The notes under the pieces: model-generated
The model's database searches: none
What the model was told of the DNA's origin: nothing
What the model saw: the letters and a program-made list of their open reading frames with translations, nothing else
Shown: positions 22,777-30,831 of the stretch, in pieces
How positions within the stretch are numbered: position 1 is the first letter of the stretch
How the letters are laid out: each line of letters begins with the position of its first letter
Translations under genes and position numbers: made by a program
NCBI GenBank assembly: GCA_045803545.1
Contig: JBJMOW010000004.1
Location: 512,001-576,000 of the forward strand
DNA length: 64,000 bases
Reading direction: 5' to 3'
DNA from: Gemmatimonadaceae bacterium
GTDB lineage: Bacteria; Gemmatimonadota; Gemmatimonadetes; Gemmatimonadales; Gemmatimonadaceae

Positions 22777-24288
22777 ATGGCAGAGCGAGTACGAACGCGC
22801 TTTTTGGTAGTGGGTAGTGGCGTTGCCGGGCTTCACACCGCCTGGCGCGCTTCGACTGGTGGCGACGTCGTGGTGCTGACAAAACGCTCGCTCTTCGACA
22901 GCGCTACAGCGTACGCGCAGGGCGGAATCGCCGCCGCACTCGGCGCTGGAGACTCGCCCGAGCTGCATCGTCAGGATACTCTGGCGGCCGGTGCGGCGCT
23001 CTGTGACTCGAAGGCCGTCGAAGTTCTGGTTGAAGAAGGACCGGCGCGCGTGCGGGAGCTGGCGACAGCCGGCGCCCACTTCGACCTCGAGCCCGGCGGC
23101 AACTTCAAGCTTGGCCGTGAAGCCGCACACTCGCGTCGTCGCATCGTTCATGCGCACGGCGATCAGACCGGCGCCGAGGTGGCGCGCACTCTGATCAAGC
23201 GCGTCAAGGAGAGCGACGACATCGAGGTATACGAGAAGACTCGCATTCTCGAACTCATCGTCGAGGGTGATGCAGTTGCTGGCGTGCGCGCGGCGGTCGC
23301 GGGGAAGCCAGTCGAATTCATTGCAGACGCCACCGTGCTCGCAACCGGTGGCTGTGGTCAGGTATTCCGCTACACCACCAATCCGCAGGTTGCTACCGGT
23401 GACGGATTCGCGATCGCGCATCGCGCGGGCGTGAAGCTCGCCGACATGGAGTTCGTACAGTTCCATCCGACGGCTCTCGACACTCCTGAGAATCCGCTGC
23501 AGCTAATCTCCGAGGCAGTACGTGGCGAAGGTGCGATTCTGATCAACGACGAAGGAAAGCGCTTCATGCTCGAGAAGCACCGCCTCGCCGAGCTTGCACC
23601 GCGGGACGTTGTCGCGCGCGAAATCTTCCGGGAGAAGATCGGTGGAAAGCATGTCTGGCTGGACGCGCGCTCACTCGGAAAGAACTTCGAGCAGCGCTTT
23701 CCGGGAATCTTCGCCATCTGCAGGGCGCGCGGCGTAAATCCGTCGACAGATCTGATCCCGGTCACCCCCGCAGCGCATTACATGATGGGCGGTATCGTCA
23801 CTGACCTGCGTGGGCGCGCGAGTCTGAATCGGTTGTATGCAGCGGGTGAGGTGTCTCGCACGGGCGTGCACGGCGCGAACAGACTGGCGTCGAACTCTTT
23901 GCTGGAAGGCCTGGTGTTCGCCGAGCGTGTGGCGCGTGACATGATCGATTGCCCGACGCTTCAGGCATCCCCACGCAAGAAAAAATGGGAAGTGCCGGTG
24001 CTGCGTGATCGCGGAGCGGCGCAGGTCGCCGCCGACAGCATCCGCCAGGTGATGTGGGACCACTGCGGCATCGATCGCAGCGCGAAGGGACTAAGGTTGG
24101 GGCTGACCAAGCTTCAGGAAATCGAATCGCGGCTGCCGACGGGCGCGACCGAAGAAGCCAACATGGTGCAGACCGCTCGGCTCATTGCCGAAGCCGCCCT
24201 GTTGAGAAAGGAGTCGCGGGGCGGCCATTATAGAAGTGATTTCCCGCGCGCCAAAAGGAAGTGGAGCGGCAAGCACATCGAATGGTAG
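22777..24288 (+). CDS. nadB: L-aspartate oxidase
   Basis: VVGSGVAGL, AYAQGGIAA, REAAHSRRRIVH, MEFVQFHPT, LISEAVRGEG, HGANRLASNSLLEG, ESRGGH. Confidence 0.96.
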   Translation: MAERVRTRFLVVGSGVAGLHTAWRASTGGDVVVLTKRSLFDSATAYAQGGIAAALGAGDSPELHRQDTLAAGAALCDSKAVEVLVEEGPARVRELATAGAHFDLEPGGNFKLGREAAHSRRRIVHAHGDQTGAEVARTLIKRVKESDDIEVYEKTRILELIVEGDAVAGVRAAVAGKPVEFIADATVLATGGCGQVFRYTTNPQVATGDGFAIAHRAGVKLADMEFVQFHPTALDTPENPLQLISEAVRGEGAILINDEGKRFMLEKHRLAELAPRDVVAREIFREKIGGKHVWLDARSLGKNFEQRFPGIFAICRARGVNPSTDLIPVTPAAHYMMGGIVTDLRGRASLNRLYAAGEVSRTGVHGANRLASNSLLEGLVFAERVARDMIDCPTLQASPRKKKWEVPVLRDRGAAQVAADSIRQVMWDHCGIDRSAKGLRLGLTKLQEIESRLPTGATEEANMVQTARLIAEAALLRKESRGGHYRSDFPRAKRKWSGKHIEW

Positions 24289-25298
24289 ATACCACGGACA
24301 AGCTGTACAAAGAACTGCAGGAAGAGATCAAGCACCTCGCGCGCGCGAGAAACGCGGTCATCCTGGCGCACAACTACGAGCGCGCGGAGGTGCAGGATGT
24401 CGCCGACTTTGTCGGCGACTCGCTGGGGCTGAGCCGCGAAGCCGCAAAGACAGAAGCCGATGTCATCGTGTTCTGTGGCGTACACTTCATGGCAGAAACC
24501 GCCGCGGTGTTGTCTCCGCAGAAGACAGTTCTTCTGCCCGATCTTGCTGCCGGCTGTTCGCTTGCAGCGACGATCGATGGTGATCAGCTGCGGCAGTGGA
24601 AGTCTGAGCATCCCGGTGCAGTCGTCGTTTCTTATGTCAACACGACTGCTGACGTGAAAGCGGAGAGTGATTATTGCTGCACGTCCGGCAACGCGGTGGA
24701 AGTCGTGAACTCCATTCCTGCCAATCAGGAGGTCCTCTTTCTTCCTGACATGTTCCTCGGCGCGCACGTGAGACGCATCACAGGCCGCAAGAACATGCAC
24801 GTGTGGATGGGTGAGTGTCACGTTCACGCTGGGATCGATCCGGAGGACATTCGGTTGCAGCGCGCCGAGCATCCGGGCGCGGAGTTTCTGATTCATCCGG
24901 AGTGCGGCTGCGCGACGAGCGTGGTGGAGGCGGTGTCGGCCGGCGACGTGGATCCGGTTGGGGTTCAGATCCTGTCGACCGAAGGGATGATCAAGCGACC
25001 GAAGATATCGACAAATGACGAGTTCATCGTCGCCACAGAGGTCGGGATTCTGCACCGGCTGCGCCGTGAGAATCCGACCAAGAAATTCCATCCGGCAAAT
25101 CGTGAGGCGGTCTGCGCGTTCATGAAGGTGACGACGCTGCCTAAAGTATTGAGATCGCTGCAGCGGATGGAGCATCGGATCACTGTGCCGGAGGATATCG
25201 CCAATCGGGCGCGCGGAGCGATCGAGCGCATGATCGCGATTGGTGGACAGACGCCGCTCTCGCCGGTTCCAGAGGCGTCGGACGACCCGGGCGAATGA
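24282..25298 (+). CDS. nadA: Quinolinate synthase
   Basis: ILAHNY, GDSL.L, FCGVHFMAETA, AGCSLA, YVNT, GECHVH, HPEC, C.FMK. Confidence 0.96.
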   Translation: MVDTTDKLYKELQEEIKHLARARNAVILAHNYERAEVQDVADFVGDSLGLSREAAKTEADVIVFCGVHFMAETAAVLSPQKTVLLPDLAAGCSLAATIDGDQLRQWKSEHPGAVVVSYVNTTADVKAESDYCCTSGNAVEVVNSIPANQEVLFLPDMFLGAHVRRITGRKNMHVWMGECHVHAGIDPEDIRLQRAEHPGAEFLIHPECGCATSVVEAVSAGDVDPVGVQILSTEGMIKRPKISTNDEFIVATEVGILHRLRRENPTKKFHPANREAVCAFMKVTTLPKVLRSLQRMEHRITVPEDIANRARGAIERMIAIGGQTPLSPVPEASDDPGE

Positions 25299-26197
25299 CC
25301 ATTCATCGTGACAAGGAGTTAGCCAAGCACGGATTCTTCTGGGAAGAAGGGCTTCACTTCCCCTTGACCAAAAAAGAGCTGACTAAGCTCGTAGCGCAGG
25401 CGCTGCAGGAAGACGACACCAAGCACGACATAACGACGGCGGCGACGGTGTTGTCGAATCGCCGAGCCCGGTGTCGGCTGGTGTCGCGACCGAGCGGAGT
25501 GATATCGGGTCTGCCGTTGGCAATAGAGGCGTTCGAGCAGCTGGACCCCGCGGTGACGGTGCGAGTAGACCATCCGGATGGGTCGCGGATCCCGGCGCAG
25601 ACGCCGGTGATGTTTCTGTCAGGGCACGCACGCGCGTTGCTATCGGCCGAGCGTGTAGCCCTCAACTTCGTGCAGAAGCTGTCGGGGATTGCGACGATGA
25701 CTGCGCGTTATGTCGACGCCGTAGCCGGCACCGGCGCGTACATTCTCGACACGCGCAAGACGACGCCGTTGTATCGTCACCTCGAGAAGTATGCAGTTCG
25801 CTGCGGCGGCGGATTGAACCACCGCATGGACCTGGCGTCTTCGGTATTGATCAAGGACAATCACCTGGCGACGGTGGAATACGACATTTTACTGGCAGTC
25901 CGACGCGCGAGAGCGCTGGCGCCGGCGGGGGTGAAGGTCGAAGTGGAGTGTGAGACGCTCGATCACGTTCGGGCAGCGCTCGATGCCGGCGTCGACGTGA
26001 TCATGTTCGACAACATGCAGCTGGTTGAGCTGCGCGAGGCGGTAAAGCTCGTAAATCGCCAGGCGGTCACGGAGGCGTCGGGCGGTGTCACACTGGATAC
26101 TGTGCGGCTGATTGCGGAGACTGGTGTCGACTGGATCTCGATTGGGGCACTGACGCACTCTTCGCCGGCTTTGAATGTCGGGTTGGACTTCGATTAG
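25295..26197 (+). CDS. nadC: Quinolinate phosphoribosyltransferase (decarboxylating)
   Basis: ERVALNF, DTRKTTP, NHRMDL, LIKDNH, EVECE, DNM, EASGG, ISIGALTHS. Confidence 0.96.
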   Translation: MTIHRDKELAKHGFFWEEGLHFPLTKKELTKLVAQALQEDDTKHDITTAATVLSNRRARCRLVSRPSGVISGLPLAIEAFEQLDPAVTVRVDHPDGSRIPAQTPVMFLSGHARALLSAERVALNFVQKLSGIATMTARYVDAVAGTGAYILDTRKTTPLYRHLEKYAVRCGGGLNHRMDLASSVLIKDNHLATVEYDILLAVRRARALAPAGVKVEVECETLDHVRAALDAGVDVIMFDNMQLVELREAVKLVNRQAVTEASGGVTLDTVRLIAETGVDWISIGALTHSSPALNVGLDFD

Positions 26198-26313: not shown

Positions 26314-27951
26314 ATGGATCGTAGGGATTTCTTGCGGCTTAGCGCGGTCGGCGCTGCGCTCGGAGTCGGCGGCGTGCCGCTCGTCGGTGAACAATCTCGG
26401 TTTGGCTCGAGAACCGGCGAAGCGACGGGTTTCAACATCGCCGCGTTCGAGCTGGAAGAGGCGACGCTTGACGATCTGCAGAAGTGGATGGCGTCGGGGA
26501 GGATGACGTCGCGATCGATCACTCAGCTCTACCTGAATCGCATCGCGGCTCTGGATCGCAAAGGTCCGTCGCTCCACCACGTGATCGAGGTCAATCCCGA
26601 TGCGTTGTCGATTGCGGCATCGCTCGACCGCGAGCGTAAAGCGGGTCATGTGCGCGGGCCGCTGCACGGGATACCGGTTCTGGTCAAGGACAACGTCGAC
26701 ACCGCGGATCGGATGACGACGACAGCGGGATCACTGGCGCTGGCGGGCTCCATTCCTCTGCAGGATTCGACAGTTGCGGCGAAGCTCCGCGCAGCTGGCG
26801 TAGTGCTGCTCGGCAAAACGAACCTCAGCGAGTGGGCTAACTTCCGTTCGTCGCACTCGACCAGCGGATGGAGCGGTCGCGGCGGTCAGGCGAAGAATCC
26901 CTATGTGCTCGATCGCAATCCCTGCGGCTCGAGCTCTGGATCCGGGGGAGCCGTTTCCGCAAATCTCTGTGCAGTTGCAATCGGCACCGAGACCGATGGG
27001 TCGATCGTTTGTCCCTCGTCGACGAATGGGATCGTCGGTATCAAGCCCACTTTGGGGCTGGCCAGTCGGGCCGGAGTGATACCAATTGCCCACAGCCAGG
27101 ACACCGCCGGCCCGATGGCGAGAACGGTGCGCGATGCCGCGATTTTGTTGAACGCAATTGCCGGCGTCGACGCGCGCGACCCGGCAACTTCGGCACTGAG
27201 CGCGCGCCAGCCGGTTGACTACACCCGCTCGCTCGACGCGAATGGCCTCCGCGGCGCGAGAATTGGTGTGGCGCGCACCAAGTTCTTTGGCTACAGCGAC
27301 GTCACCGACAAAGTCATCAACGACGCAATCGATCTGATGAAGCGACAGGGCGCGGTGATCGTCGACCCGGCGAACATTGAGACCGCAGGGAAGTTCGATG
27401 ACAGCGAGTTCGACGTCCTGCTCTACGAGTTCAAGGCGGATCTGAACAACTATCTCGCGTCACTTGGCCCAAAAGCGCCGGTGAAATCGCTACAGGATAT
27501 CATTGCGTTCAACGAGGCGCACAAGGACCAGGAGATGCCCTGGTTCGGACAGGAGATCATGATCCAGGCGCAGGCGAAGGGACCGCTAACCGAGCAGAAG
27601 TACATCGACGAGCTGGCGCAGGATCTCAAGATGTCGCGCACCGATGGTATCGATGCGACTATGACCAAGTACAATCTCGATGCGATCGTCGCGCCGACCG
27701 GTGGGCCGGCGTGGGTGACGGATCTGGTCAACGGCGATCACTTCAGCGGCGCTAGCTCGACACCCGCGGCGGTGGCGGGTTATCCCAACATCAATGTCCC
27801 GGCAGGATTCTCACACGAACTGCCGATCGGGATTTCGTTTTTTGGGAGAGCGTGGAGTGAGCCGACGTTAATTCGGCTCGCTTATGCGTTTGAGCAGGCG
27901 AGCAGACATCGTCGAGCGCCAAAGTTCATTCCTACACTAGGGATATCGTAG
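26314..27951 (+). CDS. Amidase-signature family amidase with Tat signal peptide
   Basis: MDRRDFL twin-arginine signal; GPLHGIPVLVKD, GSSSGS, GTETDGSIVCPS. Confidence 0.92.
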   Translation: MDRRDFLRLSAVGAALGVGGVPLVGEQSRFGSRTGEATGFNIAAFELEEATLDDLQKWMASGRMTSRSITQLYLNRIAALDRKGPSLHHVIEVNPDALSIAASLDRERKAGHVRGPLHGIPVLVKDNVDTADRMTTTAGSLALAGSIPLQDSTVAAKLRAAGVVLLGKTNLSEWANFRSSHSTSGWSGRGGQAKNPYVLDRNPCGSSSGSGGAVSANLCAVAIGTETDGSIVCPSSTNGIVGIKPTLGLASRAGVIPIAHSQDTAGPMARTVRDAAILLNAIAGVDARDPATSALSARQPVDYTRSLDANGLRGARIGVARTKFFGYSDVTDKVINDAIDLMKRQGAVIVDPANIETAGKFDDSEFDVLLYEFKADLNNYLASLGPKAPVKSLQDIIAFNEAHKDQEMPWFGQEIMIQAQAKGPLTEQKYIDELAQDLKMSRTDGIDATMTKYNLDAIVAPTGGPAWVTDLVNGDHFSGASSTPAAVAGYPNINVPAGFSHELPIGISFFGRAWSEPTLIRLAYAFEQASRHRRAPKFIPTLGIS

Positions 27952-27954
27952 GAT

Positions 27955-28074
27955 GAGTCCGAGTTGCGAGCTGAGTCCGAGATGCGAACCTAGTCCGAGG
28001 TACGAGCCAACTACGAGCGTCGCTCGCAACTCGTAATAGGCTCGGTCTTCGGACTTAGATCGTAACTCGGACTC
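27955..28074. repeat. Composite palindrome: three 18-bp direct units followed by three inverted units
   Basis: GAGTCCGAGTTGCGAGCT/GAGTCCGAGATGCGAACC/TAGTCCGAGGTACGAGCC ... CGCTCGCAACTCGTAATA/GGCTCGGTCTTCGGACTT/AGATCGTAACTCGGACTC, between convergent genes. Confidence 0.8.
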
Positions 28075-28092
28075 GATCTACTCCCAGATCAA

Positions 28093-28941
28093 CTAACGCG
28101 TCGCCGCCTGTACGATACTCGCGGCCAACACCTTGCCCGCTTTGGACAGCGTGTATTGCACTATGGCATTCGTCGCGGCATCGCGCGCGCGTTTGACGAG
28201 ATTGCCGGCGGCATCGGTGGCCTGACTAAGCACTGGTAGCTGAGTGATGTTGCCGACGACTTTCTCGGCGGCGTTCTGGCCGGCGGCGGTGACTGCCTTC
28301 TCGAGAATGTTACCGGTGGCGGGATCGATCAGGCGCTGAACGCCATTGACGGTTCCCATCAGCAATCGATTCACCAGTCCACCGACGGCACCAACGGTGT
28401 TCTGCAACGTGCTGCCGAGTTGCTGCACGATCTCGGGATGGTTGTCGAGGAAAGTCAGCGTGTTATCGACGATGTAGTAGACGTCGTCGAGATCGACGAG
28501 CAGCAGAGCCTGCGCGCGCACACCCTGAATTGTCAGATCGACATTGCCGATCAGAACGTCGGCGCCCGCATCGACGCGCACGAGATTGGCGACCCGCGCG
28601 TTGAGATTGAGCTTCGCCGTCACGCTATCGACTTTGAGAAAGATTCTCTGGACACAGAGATTCGGAATGTCGAGCACCACGTCGTATTCCGGATACTCGT
28701 GTGAGCGCCCAGTTCCACCGGTGACCTGCGCAGCGCCGGCAACGCCGCCCGCGGCTCGCTGCGCAGCGAGACTGTCAACACGTAATCCTCTATTGAACGC
28801 GCGCGCGGAGTCGGTCGGCTGACACTGCCATGGTTGTCCGGCGCCTGGTCGCGTCGCAGTTCGCTGTTGCGCGAAAGTGATCGACGGGGCCAGTGCTGCT
28901 ACTGTCAGCACTGAGGTGACGACACGCGTGGTGGTGCGCAT
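28093..28941 (-). CDS. Secreted hypothetical protein A: amphipathic beta-strand core plus C-terminal beta-hairpin repeats
   Basis: Sec signal ending TFA-Q; AGAGGA RBS; core DVVLDIPNL..VDLDDV..LDNHP is paralogous to the 30202 gene. Confidence 0.85.
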   Translation of the reverse strand: MRTTTRVVTSVLTVAALAPSITFAQQRTATRPGAGQPWQCQPTDSARAFNRGLRVDSLAAQRAAGGVAGAAQVTGGTGRSHEYPEYDVVLDIPNLCVQRIFLKVDSVTAKLNLNARVANLVRVDAGADVLIGNVDLTIQGVRAQALLLVDLDDVYYIVDNTLTFLDNHPEIVQQLGSTLQNTVGAVGGLVNRLLMGTVNGVQRLIDPATGNILEKAVTAAGQNAAEKVVGNITQLPVLSQATDAAGNLVKRARDAATNAIVQYTLSKAGKVLAASIVQAATR

Positions 28942-29012
28942 ATGCAGATCCTCTGGACGGAACGACGCCGGACTCGTCTCACATCACAACCCGACTAACG
29001 TCGAATGCGAAT

Positions 29013-29054
29013 TGCAAAAAGCTCGCCCGACCGGTGTAAGGCACGGATGTTGAA
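29013..29054. promoter_or_regulatory. Back-to-back sigma54-like -24/-12 promoter motifs
   Basis: Minus strand GG-CGAGCTTTTT-GC-A (29027-29013); plus strand AA-GG-CACGGATGTT-GA-A (29038-29054). Confidence 0.5.
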
Positions 29055-29082
29055 CTCCGTGACTCCGTTCCTGGGGAGCATC

Positions 29083-29688
29083 ATGCGCAGAAAGTCAAAA
29101 ATGTACACAGCGCTGGTCTGGGGAACGTCGCTCGTGGCGATGTCACCCGCCTTGGTACGCGCGCAGGTCGCGGCTAGTGATGCGAACAACCAGACGTGCG
29201 CGGCACTGCTGTCGAACGACGGCAGTGTCGGCGCGCGAGTCGGGCCCGGGCTCACCGACACCGCATCGCGGCGCGATACTACGACCCGCGCTCGAGCGGA
29301 TAGCGCATCGTTTGGCATTGGCGGCGCCCGTACAGGCACAACCAATCCGACAGTGCATCTCCTCGTCGGTGTTCAGGCGGACCAGGTCACATTCGCCAAA
29401 CAACCGCAGGTGCGAGTGCGGCTTTGCTGGGGCGGCGACACGCTGAGAGTAGTGCAGCGAACGAATCTCCCGTCGCCAGTGGTCGCCGGTACTACCTATA
29501 GAAACGTATACGTCGCGGTCGAGTTGATCGGCCGATTGAACGGCCAGTGCCTATCGGACGCGATTGGCGTTGGCAATCAGCAAACGCAACCACGTGCGGG
29601 CGCCGCGCCGACATCAGCTGCCAATTGCGCGTTCCTCGGCGGGAATGCGAGCGCCGGTCAGGGAAGTCCGAGACCGCCAGTCCCATGA
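29083..29688 (+). CDS. Secreted hypothetical protein B (four Cys, beta-rich)
   Basis: GGGGAG RBS; signal peptide ending VRA-Q; RTNLPSPVVAGTTYRNVYV motif. Confidence 0.8.
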   Translation: MRRKSKMYTALVWGTSLVAMSPALVRAQVAASDANNQTCAALLSNDGSVGARVGPGLTDTASRRDTTTRARADSASFGIGGARTGTTNPTVHLLVGVQADQVTFAKQPQVRVRLCWGGDTLRVVQRTNLPSPVVAGTTYRNVYVAVELIGRLNGQCLSDAIGVGNQQTQPRAGAAPTSAANCAFLGGNASAGQGSPRPPVP

Positions 29689-30185
29689 TCAGTCATCATT
29701 GCTCGATCACTGGCGCAGCGATGTTTGTGCTGAGCTCGGTTGCGATCGGACAAACGCCGCCGCGACCGACTCCGATTCCAAATCAGGTCCCACCGCGATC
29801 ACTCACTGCACAGGGCGCGCTTTCGGACTCGACGGCCGGAACGGCCGCGGGCTGCCCGGGCGGGAACGGCATTCACATCTCGACAACTGGCGGGACTGGA
29901 ACCGACTCATCCTCGGGAACGAATCAATTCATAGGGCTCGGGCAGTCGGTCGACACGACCTGGGTCTTCAATATTCAGCAGCGAACCTGGACGCGCACCA
30001 ATCTTGCGGCTGCGCTGAGTGTCGGACTCGCAGATGAAACGCGCGGACGATACGCGATATGTGCGGGAGTGACGGCGATAATGCCGAGTGCAACGCTGAC
30101 ACTTCGAGGTGCGCGCGGTCGTGTGCACTTCGCGGCATCACTCAAACAACTGAGCGATGCTCTTCGGTTAGGTCCGGGGCGATGA
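29685..30185 (+). CDS. Secreted hypothetical protein C (divergent copy of the A/D core)
   Basis: ATGA overlap with B; signal-like N-terminus; AG-x9-LT[IL]xG[AV]R-x8-L pattern shared with A. Confidence 0.72.
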   Translation: MISHHCSITGAAMFVLSSVAIGQTPPRPTPIPNQVPPRSLTAQGALSDSTAGTAAGCPGGNGIHISTTGGTGTDSSSGTNQFIGLGQSVDTTWVFNIQQRTWTRTNLAAALSVGLADETRGRYAICAGVTAIMPSATLTLRGARGRVHFAASLKQLSDALRLGPGR

Positions 30186-30201
30186 GCCTTCAACCTGGGA
30201 G

Positions 30202-30663
30202 ATGGTGACGATGCGTGGTGGAATCCTGATTACCGGACTCTTTCTCTGTGCCGCCGCAGTGCCGGCGTTTGCACAACAGCCAACCGGACAGCGCACGTTC
30301 ACCAGTAACGCGCAGGTAACTCCGAATCGCGATGTGATCCTCGAGATTCCGGAACTGTCGGTCGATTCGATCGGCCTGACGGTTTCCGATGTACGCGCTC
30401 ACGTCGCGCTCGACGCCAACGCGATGAACCTCGTCCAGTTGACGGCAGGCGTCGATGTCGGGATCAAGAAGGTGCAGCTCGGCATCGTCGGTGTGATGGC
30501 GGAGGCTTACCTCTACGTCGACCTCGATAACGTCGCCAGGATCGTGAACCGCGTTGTGCAGACCCTCGACCGGAATCCGCAGATTCTGATTCAGGTGCTC
30601 AAGACTGTTGATACCGCGGTCAATTCGATTACGGGACAGCCGGGACAGCCGCCGCGGCCGTAA
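30202..30663 (+). CDS. Secreted hypothetical protein D (signal peptide plus single amphipathic beta core)
   Basis: Signal ending AFA-Q; ungapped alignment with protein A. The true start may be the ATG at 30211. Confidence 0.85.
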   Translation: MVTMRGGILITGLFLCAAAVPAFAQQPTGQRTFTSNAQVTPNRDVILEIPELSVDSIGLTVSDVRAHVALDANAMNLVQLTAGVDVGIKKVQLGIVGVMAEAYLYVDLDNVARIVNRVVQTLDRNPQILIQVLKTVDTAVNSITGQPGQPPRP

Positions 30664-30690
30664 CGGCACTGCGAACTGATAACTGCAACC

Positions 30691-30831
30691 AAAGGTAGGG
30701 AGTCAGCAGAGAGCTCAGGCCAGAGTTGGCAGCTACGATCCTGGCGATCCAGGCGCAACGCGCTTCGAATGCGCGTAACAACGCCGCGAACTGAGTTCTG
30801 AGCTCTCTGCATTCTGCCTACCTTTTTTTTT
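30691..30831. terminator. Long imperfect hairpin ending in a T-run between convergent genes
   Basis: GCAGAGAGCTCAG (30706-30718) pairs with CTGAGCTCTCTGC (30798-30810); outer AAAGGTAGG/CCTACCTTT; then a T tract. Confidence 0.65.

Follow-up and report, generated by a model that had tools for sequence, protein, structure and literature searches.

A divergent four-gene cluster of Gemmatimonadaceae encoding predicted long one-faced beta-hairpin proteins and a conserved partner

Organization of the locus

The window analysed is a 64,000-nucleotide stretch of contig JBJMOW010000004.1 (assembly GCA_045803545.1) from a Gemmatimonadaceae bacterium. It contains four adjacent ORFs, arranged as the initial annotation had described them, with gene A (28093-28941, 282 aa) on the minus strand and genes B (29083-29688, 201 aa), C (29685-30185, 166 aa) and D (30211-30663, 150 aa) on the plus strand, B and C being coupled by an ATGA overlap. 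Gene A, defined by the ORF call and by its homology to D, carries a D-family hairpin core that includes Cys96 (about 28381-28692, minus strand), followed by two short beta repeats at the C-terminus (about 28102-28350, minus strand). B has a conserved domain of ~75 aa (about 29347-29565, plus strand) with R-x-N-L-P and G-x-T-Y-R in its consensus, C a diverged D-family hairpin with a longer turn, and D little besides its leader and the bare core (about 30325-30636, plus strand), a putative long amphipathic beta-hairpin with two helices. The divergent intergenic region between A and B (28942..29082) would accommodate two promoters, judging from the gene layout, and no sigma-70 consensus site was found in it. 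The spacer between C and D (30186..30210, plus strand) holds the D ribosome-binding site. In near relatives the cluster is flanked by amidase and acyl-CoA dehydrogenase genes, and near-identical contigs in RNA libraries, which need not stem from transcripts, span parts of all four genes.

Signal-like N-termini were recognized by eye on all four proteins, in agreement with the earlier reading, and the Ala-Gln at the presumed cleavage point is invariant in 6/6 aligned A/D-type proteins. The cysteines outside the leaders also agree with the earlier account (A 40 and 96; B 39, 115, 156 and 182; C 57 and 126); further cysteines occur in the leaders of C (position 6) and D (position 13, the only one in that protein).

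Long hairpins do exist on both sides of the cluster. The left one (27948..28081) is imperfect, contains 18-nt repeats and has 60-nt arms that are 75% complementary, and the right one (about 30690..30828) is followed by a T run and is a possible terminator. Each belongs to a different repeat family scattered over the genome, and they are thus not specific to the cluster. The role of cluster boundary that had been assigned to them was ruled out by this dispersal, by comparison of the junctions and by close strains, in which the left hairpin is swapped for other sequence.

The D family and its predicted hairpin core

The alignment of A84-179 with D38-133 contains exactly the 44 identities in 96 ungapped positions that had been counted by hand, and BLASTP aligned the two proteins at 42% identity over 129 aa (E 3e-22). 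Pairwise BLASTP gave no match of C to D. Profile-to-profile comparison by HHalign of C with the D family (probability 72%, E 3.4e-5, 55 columns) identifies C as a remote homologue of D, as had been proposed, with the similarity covering the tip half of both strands and not just the second strand. B yielded HHalign probabilities under 1% against D or C, so that its look-alike N-terminal motif is no evidence of homology.

Homologues of D form 1,022 unannotated clusters at 50% identity (one candidate, G091, with E 5.8e-4 and 28% identity, was left out of the homologue count). They occur in Streptomyces and Nonomuraea, bearing out the suggestion that actinobacterial relatives exist, in Deinococcus deserti and a dune-soil Deinococcus, and in soil Gemmatimonadota; two matches look eukaryotic, and fungal members, also suggested earlier, are a possibility. 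One locus was found in viral contigs and none in phage records. D is the most conserved member of the cluster (79-94% identity among the best 120 matches). Some members of the family are multidomain forms of 1,000 residues, and the tails that adjoin the fixed core are variable and rich in repeats. The family is covered by neither Pfam nor NCBIfam models, and its members carry only "hypothetical" names; the ESM Atlas clusters nearest to D are likewise unnamed, with no named match, and literature searches returned no title on the family. Domain-model searches also agreed with the initial annotation in that they returned no catalytic domain or family for the cluster proteins, the weak Pfam matches of C (Kelch) and A (MlaA) both lying below the cut-off.

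The one-faced character of the strands is pronounced: in 141 non-redundant homologues every second position of the D core holds a hydrophobic residue in 96-100% of cases, nearly always V/L/I/A, while the opposite face is mostly D/E/K/R. The hydrophobic face runs over ~60 residues with almost no aromatics (no strand position exceeding 0.26), and a monomer would therefore be unable to bury it. AlphaFold2 predicts D to be a long beta-hairpin (strands 42-50/53-70 and 76-93/96-103) followed by two helices (106-121 and 123-141), where a single short helix had been expected. The monomer model (pLDDT 79; mostly 83-94 in the core, falling to 73 at the tip) leaves the helices undocked. With a pTM of 0.41 it is locally confident but lacks a defined overall shape, as expected of a subunit that would be incomplete alone, which is consistent with the earlier suggestion that D needs to oligomerise.

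The predicted register of the hairpin is backed by co-variation, since 15 of the top 40 pairs fall on it (0-7 in 25 shuffles). Six of the 40 pairs connect residues 70-75 at the tip with the base and helices (100-127), compared with 1.4 expected and 0-5 in shuffles, in a window that was narrowed post hoc; a wider window gave 9/60 (4.4 expected, shuffles 1-7). A straight D monomer cannot satisfy these contacts, and they were counted in favour of head-to-tail packing. The same tip-to-base signal could also mean a hairpin folded back on itself.

Such folding back is the basis of one alternative, in which D-type proteins would be soluble monomers or dimers, each hairpin coiling round its own helices to give a tubular lipid carrier resembling TULIP/BPI proteins, with no higher assembly. 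The tip-to-helix pairs can be met within one chain, the regular beta-bulges (52-53, 59-60, 85-86 and Gly94) would coil the hairpin, and human SPLUNC1 is among the weak Foldseek rows (E 0.82, TM 0.15). Yet AlphaFold2 keeps strands 53-70 and 76-93 unbroken at high confidence with the helices apart from them, and a TULIP domain is about twice the size of the D core (104 aa), which makes this arrangement improbable.

Comparison of the D model with the PDB by Foldseek gave no match at E up to 0.001, and a wide VIA-align search returned a best Z of 3.8, no chain out of 48,161 reaching 5. The model of B (pLDDT 65.9, pTM 0.51), with three strands and a short helix, gave a best Foldseek E of 0.54 and a best VIA Z of 4.0. 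These blank searches imply neither a new nor a different fold for the two proteins. For D, Foldseek ranked pore stems first, those of CDTb, iota toxin and protective antigen (E 0.04-0.2, query TM below 0.25), and placed aerolysin and lysenin lower down; these rows would suit a secreted pore-forming protein whose hairpins build a barrel stem across a membrane. We consider this highly improbable, given that the rows mirror the long hairpin only, that the hydrophobic face occupies the full length and not one membrane width, that an aromatic girdle is missing, that no receptor-binding domain was matched and that most homologues lack a leader. Sequence searches of solved structures produced nothing for the D core, only matches to helical tails, and a mixed D+B profile produced one marginal 39-position match (9qgl_9A, E 0.00096), which is absent among the rows listed by either fold search.

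Gene neighbourhood, export and inversion of the A-B-C block

The expected co-occurrence of the homologous genes in other genomes was confirmed by a neighbourhood survey. B lies beside D in 52/57 Gemmatimonadota loci, among them every one of the 47 that have two D-family copies, and in 47/84 mostly actinobacterial-type loci (32/40 of those with at least 1.5 kb downstream), the range of B being taken from loci alone; in addition, four proteins are natural D-B fusions. B is thus a core partner across phyla rather than the mere adaptor first proposed. It is not obligatory, since it is missing in 8/40 assessable loci, among them those of two Deinococcus homologues. The conserved core of the system is D plus B, and A and C are lineage-specific additions, C having been seen only in Gemmatimonadaceae-type loci. 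The outcomes named beforehand as telling against a polymer, namely a confident D monomer or a match to a known domain together with a lack of co-occurrence, were not observed.

A same-strand gene for an SRPBCC/START-like protein (PF03364) precedes D in 21/84 mostly actinobacterial-type loci, and none lies beside the Gemmatimonadota clusters. Genes of this kind are neighbours in actinobacterial gas-vesicle clusters, and one D homologue (L086) is encoded inside a gas-vesicle cluster. These associations bear on the possibility that the proteins form an interface coat, a hairpin sheet one molecule thick with its aliphatic face toward gas or neutral lipid (a GvpA-like wall, or a lipid-droplet or air-water coat) that would serve under drought or osmotic stress. 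The aromatic-poor aliphatic face opposite a charged one resembles the two-faced design of the GvpA wall, and the amphipathic 11-mer tails of some members and the occurrence of the family in Deinococcus deserti and a dune-soil Deinococcus would also fit. Against it, gas-vesicle genes are near D in just 2/84 loci; in a sample of the phylum the two other D-bearing genomes lack a PF00741 match and 20 genomes with such a match (including the unpublished G157) lack a D match; the gas-vesicle genes of the present genome are on another contig; and a gas vesicle is cytoplasmic, whereas the copies described here carry leaders. A coat of this type is unlikely, and a general link to gas vesicles was ruled out by the 2/84 loci and the absent co-distribution.

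By a hydrophobicity heuristic, 50/126 assessable D homologues have a signal-like N-terminus and 76/126 do not. The extracellular filament of the initial annotation could not be retained as a general role of the family, most of which lacks a signal peptide. Two homologues have, as read by eye, an N-terminal domain resembling an outer-membrane beta-barrel, which would place their D-type core in the periplasm. From their leaders, D, A and C are likely exported to the cell envelope and not assembled as a filament outside it.

An open-ended polymer could nevertheless be made in either compartment, extracellular or periplasmic here and intracellular in actinobacteria, by hairpins that add to one another along their edges to form a filament or tube, with D as major subunit, A and C as minor or cap subunits and B as nucleator or chaperone. 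Both edges of the predicted hairpin are free for strand addition, the cluster contains several paralogues of which D is the most conserved, and polymer subunits typically have variable, repeat-rich tails around a constant core. The leaderless majority, however, argues against such a polymer, as do the D-B fusions and 1,000-residue multidomain forms, which suit a bare major pilin poorly, the lack of a conserved secretion or anchoring gene adjoining the cluster, and strand-edge co-variation at chance level (2 and 2 pairs, 1.4 and 1.7 expected). We hold this model to be rather doubtful.

Among related species the A-B-C block (28093..30185) can lie either way round between its fixed flanks, the amidase gene and D: it is inverted in 8/19 and not in 11/19, a pattern that takes a minimum of three changes to explain. 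In every case D remains downstream, whether of A or of B-C, and in inverted loci the right-hand breakpoint coincides with the left edge of the C-D spacer. The junctions of the window and 26 loci (the left junction was not taken for 2) share microhomology of stop-codon length only, with no conserved inverted repeat, and no recombinase was recognized by eye among ORFs of at least 200 aa at 12-48 kb of the window. Contigs of four DNA-type and four RNA-library runs contained no strand-changing joint, which is no evidence against switching because contigs drop rare variants. Sister species share the same orientation, and the pattern therefore resembles inversion recurring in evolution more than a rapid switch. 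An assembly artefact was thought unlikely, given the repeat-free C-D spacer and the common junction type of separately assembled sister species. This recurrent inversion, in which D always ends up after one or the other of two divergent transcription units, constitutes a rare natural experiment in operon wiring.

A proposed assembly and its relation to known systems

The reading that we favour, with a probability of roughly 40%, is that D, A and C join B in a head-to-tail assembly of finite size that has an aliphatic core, is sent to the envelope in this organism and holds or buffers lipids. Each family core would consist of a beta-hairpin of roughly 10 nm, with an aliphatic and a charged side, and of two amphipathic helices after it. 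After export, probably to the periplasm, these proteins may pair head-to-tail, as the weak co-variation suggests, and the conserved B would likely join them in a rod or tube of finite length whose oily core could take up lipid-like molecules. D would be the minimal subunit, lengthened in A by short beta repeats and shortened in C; the cysteine pairs may be disulphides added in the exported version. The SRPBCC neighbour, the barrel-like domain and apolipoprotein-like tails are pointers to a function in lipid handling; the tails, of 11-residue amphipathic repeats, occur in 12/142 aligned members and match apolipoproteins with no more than 32 bits, well short of the Pfam cut-off of 90, and may be generic 11-mer repeats. 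Small aliphatic faces can also pack together with no cavity left. A wider proposal, that D and B represent a new kind of tube or shell made of self-assembling beta-hairpins, intracellular in actinobacteria and located in the envelope in Gemmatimonadota, whose make-up changes as A-B-C inversion rewires the co-expression of D, is speculative and probably does not hold as a whole.

On present sequence comparisons no described family or system was matched by the D/B module, and the function given here is a proposal. The module represents a hypothetical family that has a fixed partner gene, comprises over 1,000 distinct clusters in taxa ranging from Streptomyces and Deinococcus to the abundant Gemmatimonadota of soil, and is built on an unusual design of one very long, strictly one-faced hairpin. 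Its culturable carriers (Streptomyces, Nonomuraea, Deinococcus deserti) and the D-B fusions make it directly testable. An oligomeric lipid holder would be a new type of envelope or stress scaffold, and a polymerising system would add a filament or shell of a new kind to those of bacteria and be a candidate material.

Several known systems share part of this design. In the phase-variation switches of the Hin, Gin and Fim type a segment flips, as the A-B-C block does, changing which promoter would read D in this case; the A-B-C junctions differ in having no conserved inverted repeat and no recombinase recognized nearby. Curli (CsgA/CsgB), chaplins and TasA are built from related exported subunits whose genes lie in a small divergent cluster, a layout resembled by the present locus with its putatively exported paralogues, but A-D have no repeat or family match to them and no dedicated secretion genes nearby, and most homologues are leaderless. 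The stems of beta-pore toxins (CDTb, iota Ib, protective antigen, aerolysin, lysenin) are, like the predicted core of D, two-stranded hairpins of ~30 residues per strand, and are set apart from D by its polarity pattern and its missing aromatic girdle, cap and receptor domains. GvpA (PF00741) combines an amphipathic, aliphatic-faced beta-hairpin with helices and works only as an assembly; the likeness extends to the SRPBCC neighbour of D-family loci and to the position of L086. A-D nevertheless gave no PF00741 match at E up to 1, nor did 142 family members at E up to 0.01, and the D hairpin is about three times longer, precedes both helices, is probably exported in Gemmatimonadota and is not co-distributed with gas-vesicle genes. 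TULIP/BPI proteins and the beta-grooves of LptA and AsmA/TamB, to which the D family has no match in the form of TULIP sequences or profiles, share with it long bulged strands, a small aliphatic face, a polar outer face, a periplasmic or secreted location, which is likely for the proteins described here, and possibly a tether to an outer-membrane barrel. The D family differs in having a dedicated partner B and cytoplasmic versions, and its chain provides a single two-stranded hairpin, so that a tunnel of this kind would need several chains.

Gene complement of the cluster and distribution of the D family

The four-gene cluster described in the initial annotation was confirmed, with ORFs at the positions proposed: gene A at 28093-28941 on the minus strand, and genes B (29083-29688), C (29685-30185) and D (30211-30663) on the plus strand. 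The ungapped likeness of A to D also held, with 44 of 96 positions identical (BLASTP E 3e-22). C gave no match to the D family by pairwise BLASTP; in a profile-profile comparison it aligned with the family over 55 columns (probability 72%, E 3.4e-5), and its profile retrieved D-family proteins from the collected homologue set (best E 1.7e-7), which makes C a remote family member. No homology was detected between B and either D or C, and none of the four proteins reached a Pfam or NCBIfam cut-off.

D had 1,041 matches among 90% clusters and 1,022 among 50% representatives, 660 of the latter at E ≤1e-10. Named carriers include Gemmatimonadaceae, Longimicrobium, Streptomyces, Saccharopolyspora, Nonomuraea, Deinococcus and one Caulobacteraceae bin, nearly all members being annotated as hypothetical; among the titles listed in literature searches, none concerned the family. 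Within the phylum of the window's genome, Gemmatimonadota as judged from the names given to the closest relatives, the family is patchily distributed, clear homologues occurring in two of 300 other sampled genomes, in two copies apiece (one weak match not counted).

A hydrophobicity heuristic applied to the top 150 representatives assigned a signal-like N-terminus to 50 and none to 76, with 24 not assessable; the scores are bimodal. The initial interpretation was supported in part: a true extracellular filament cannot be what the D family forms in general, given that most assessable members lack a leader, but it may still be formed in the genome of the window. Leaderless forms often carry an acidic N-terminus and a tail made of 11-residue amphipathic repeats, and short beta repeats of the A type are common in leader-bearing forms (22/50 versus 5/76 leaderless, strict motif). 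In two proteins the N-terminal domain, as read by eye, resembles an outer-membrane beta-barrel; a Pfam search of this domain gave no match. The homologues P0157 and P0159 exceed 1,000 residues and combine such an N-terminus with a D core and with numerous short beta repeats; P0282 and P0283 are of similar length.

The D and B genes and their neighbours

In 57 Gemmatimonadota loci, drawn from the best 80 of 82 matches, two D-family genes were present in 47 and B in 52, including all 47 with two copies, and C occurred in 31 and in none of the Longimicrobiaceae-titled loci. In every one of the 10 single-copy loci the sequence stops within 560 bases of the gene. D-family queries recovered a further 84 loci (79 metagenomic, one viral contig and four plasmid-collection records), metagenomic ones being termed actinobacterial-type by likeness to named proteins. 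B lies downstream of D in 47 of these 84; where 1.5 kb or more of downstream sequence is available (40 loci), the count is 32. The D core and B domain are fused in four proteins: P0260 (Streptomyces sp.), P0289 (Nonomuraea sp.), P0206 and P0288. Since B recurs beside D and is naturally fused with its core, D and B form the conserved core, with A a second copy of D and C a family-level addition. B was not found beside the two Deinococcus homologues, which counts against an obligatory role.

The two Deinococcus plasmids have, where B would stand, a conserved hypothetical gene with a secreted-looking product, convergent with the D homologue (L067:6786-7292 and L068:6872-7378). On Streptomyces sp. 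WAC00288 plasmid p1, an unannotated B-family ORF (L069:8874-9194) lies directly 3' of the D homologue, in frame after its stop codon. A START-like SRPBCC gene precedes D on the same strand in 21 of the 84 further loci. The IMG/VR viral contig (L150:3352-5387) carries an actinobacterial-type trio of small amphipathic protein, SRPBCC and D homologue among phage-like genes. Genes for further acidic repeat proteins follow D in L117, L122, L126, L128, L129, L134, L137, L139-L141, L145, L147 and L148, and precede B in those of these loci where B was recognised; the proteins of this L117-L148 subgroup have weak WXG100 and apolipoprotein matches. Upstream of the amidase gene, the window holds an ordinary nadB-nadA-nadC cluster (22777-26197, as read from the sequence), of which nadC and nadA are also kept there in near relatives.

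In one locus (L086:1-6425) a D-family gene sits between gvpK and gvpA, within a gas-vesicle cluster. Gas-vesicle genes lie near D in only 2 of the 84 further loci. PF00741, the GvpA family, was found in 21 of 301 phylum genomes (including the unpublished G157) and, among the three that bear D, only in the genome of the window (three genes at G000:C6:68941-69940, L151). Co-distribution of gas-vesicle genes with D in the phylum sample was rejected.

Inversion of the A-B-C block and the flanking hairpins

Nineteen near loci sharing the amidase and/or acyl-CoA dehydrogenase flanks were compared (18 in the first comparison; L018 was omitted as truncated). The order A- B+ C+ D+ of the window occurs in 11, and C- B- A+ D+ in eight (L013, L014, L016, L017, L019, L021, L022 and L027), in which the block corresponding to 28093-30185 is inverted while its flanks stay the same. 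In L064, which is more distant and has no C, the order is B- A+ D+. Trees built from genes within and outside the block needed 3 and 6 orientation changes, at least 3 being forced by well-supported branches, and a single clade of inverted loci, a group named before the trees were seen, was rejected by the AU test (p 2e-75 and 3e-6).

On the right-hand side the break invariably lies past the stop codon of C or A and ahead of the ribosome-binding site of D, and the junctions showed no conserved inverted repeat. Whichever way the block points, D directly follows a gene of its own direction and would remain under one of two divergent promoters. Because orientation and junction type agree between sister species, the comparison points to repeated evolutionary inversion, or whole-block exchange between lineages, rather than to a fast switch.

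The long hairpins noted initially on both sides of the cluster do exist, as long imperfect palindromes at 27948-28081 and 30690-30828; they are no part of the system, being members of repeat families scattered over the genome (48 and 40 BLASTN pieces, E ≤1, self-matches counted) and varying among relatives. In contigs of close strains from two soil runs, the left hairpin is replaced by 136 other nucleotides. A simple scan found 110 long-hairpin loci in the genome. The two palindrome families are possible mobile repeats, and perhaps helped the inversions.

Predicted structure, assembly and comparison with known systems

AlphaFold2 modeled D from 142 sequences (mean pLDDT 79, pTM 0.41) as a long hairpin, residues 42-50/53-70 pairing with 76-93/96-103, followed by helices at 106-121 and 123-141. 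Every second position is 96-100% hydrophobic across 141 non-redundant cores, V, L, I and A making up almost all of these residues; the opposite face is mostly D, E, K or R, and bulges fall at 52-53, 59-60, 85-86 and Gly94. Mean-field co-variation confirmed the hairpin register at an effective depth of 172: the register accounts for 15 of the 40 strongest pairs, compared with 0-7 in 25 shuffles made within clusters. Six of the 40 strongest pairs connect residues 70-75 at the tip with residues 100-127 in the base and helices (1.4 expected; 0-5 in shuffles). Head-to-tail packing is taken as a lead, not a result, since this range was picked after the data were seen and with a broader range the excess was no more than twofold, within reach of the shuffles. 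The B domain is predicted to form three strands and a short helix. A Photorhabdus protein (PDB 9qgl chain 9A) matched a mixed D and B profile marginally (39 positions, E 0.00096), and was absent from the fold-search rows shown.

With some 30 residues per strand and an unbroken aliphatic face, the hairpin would need other subunits, lipid or gas to cover that face. The best reading, to which we give a probability of roughly 0.4, is that D, A and C together with B would form a finite head-to-tail assembly, exported to the envelope in this genome and located in the cytoplasm in actinobacteria, with an oily core that would hold or buffer lipid-like molecules; the lipid step draws on circumstantial neighbours, namely SRPBCC genes, apolipoprotein-like tails and the barrel fusion. 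An open polymer is a less probable but serious rival, as is, with slightly lower probability, a coat at an interface; that one of these three assemblies is correct we consider very probable. A membrane-spanning barrel is unlikely because the aliphatic face is three membranes long and without aromatics.

By tests of sequence and gene context, the D/B system falls outside the tubular lipid-holder and GvpA families, the beta-pore toxins and the curli-type fibres; the module is rated an undescribed system. The surface design of the D core resembles that of GvpA. On the preferred reading of a finite, lipid-buffering assembly, D, A and C with B would work like a tubular lipid holder, but as a multi-chain version.
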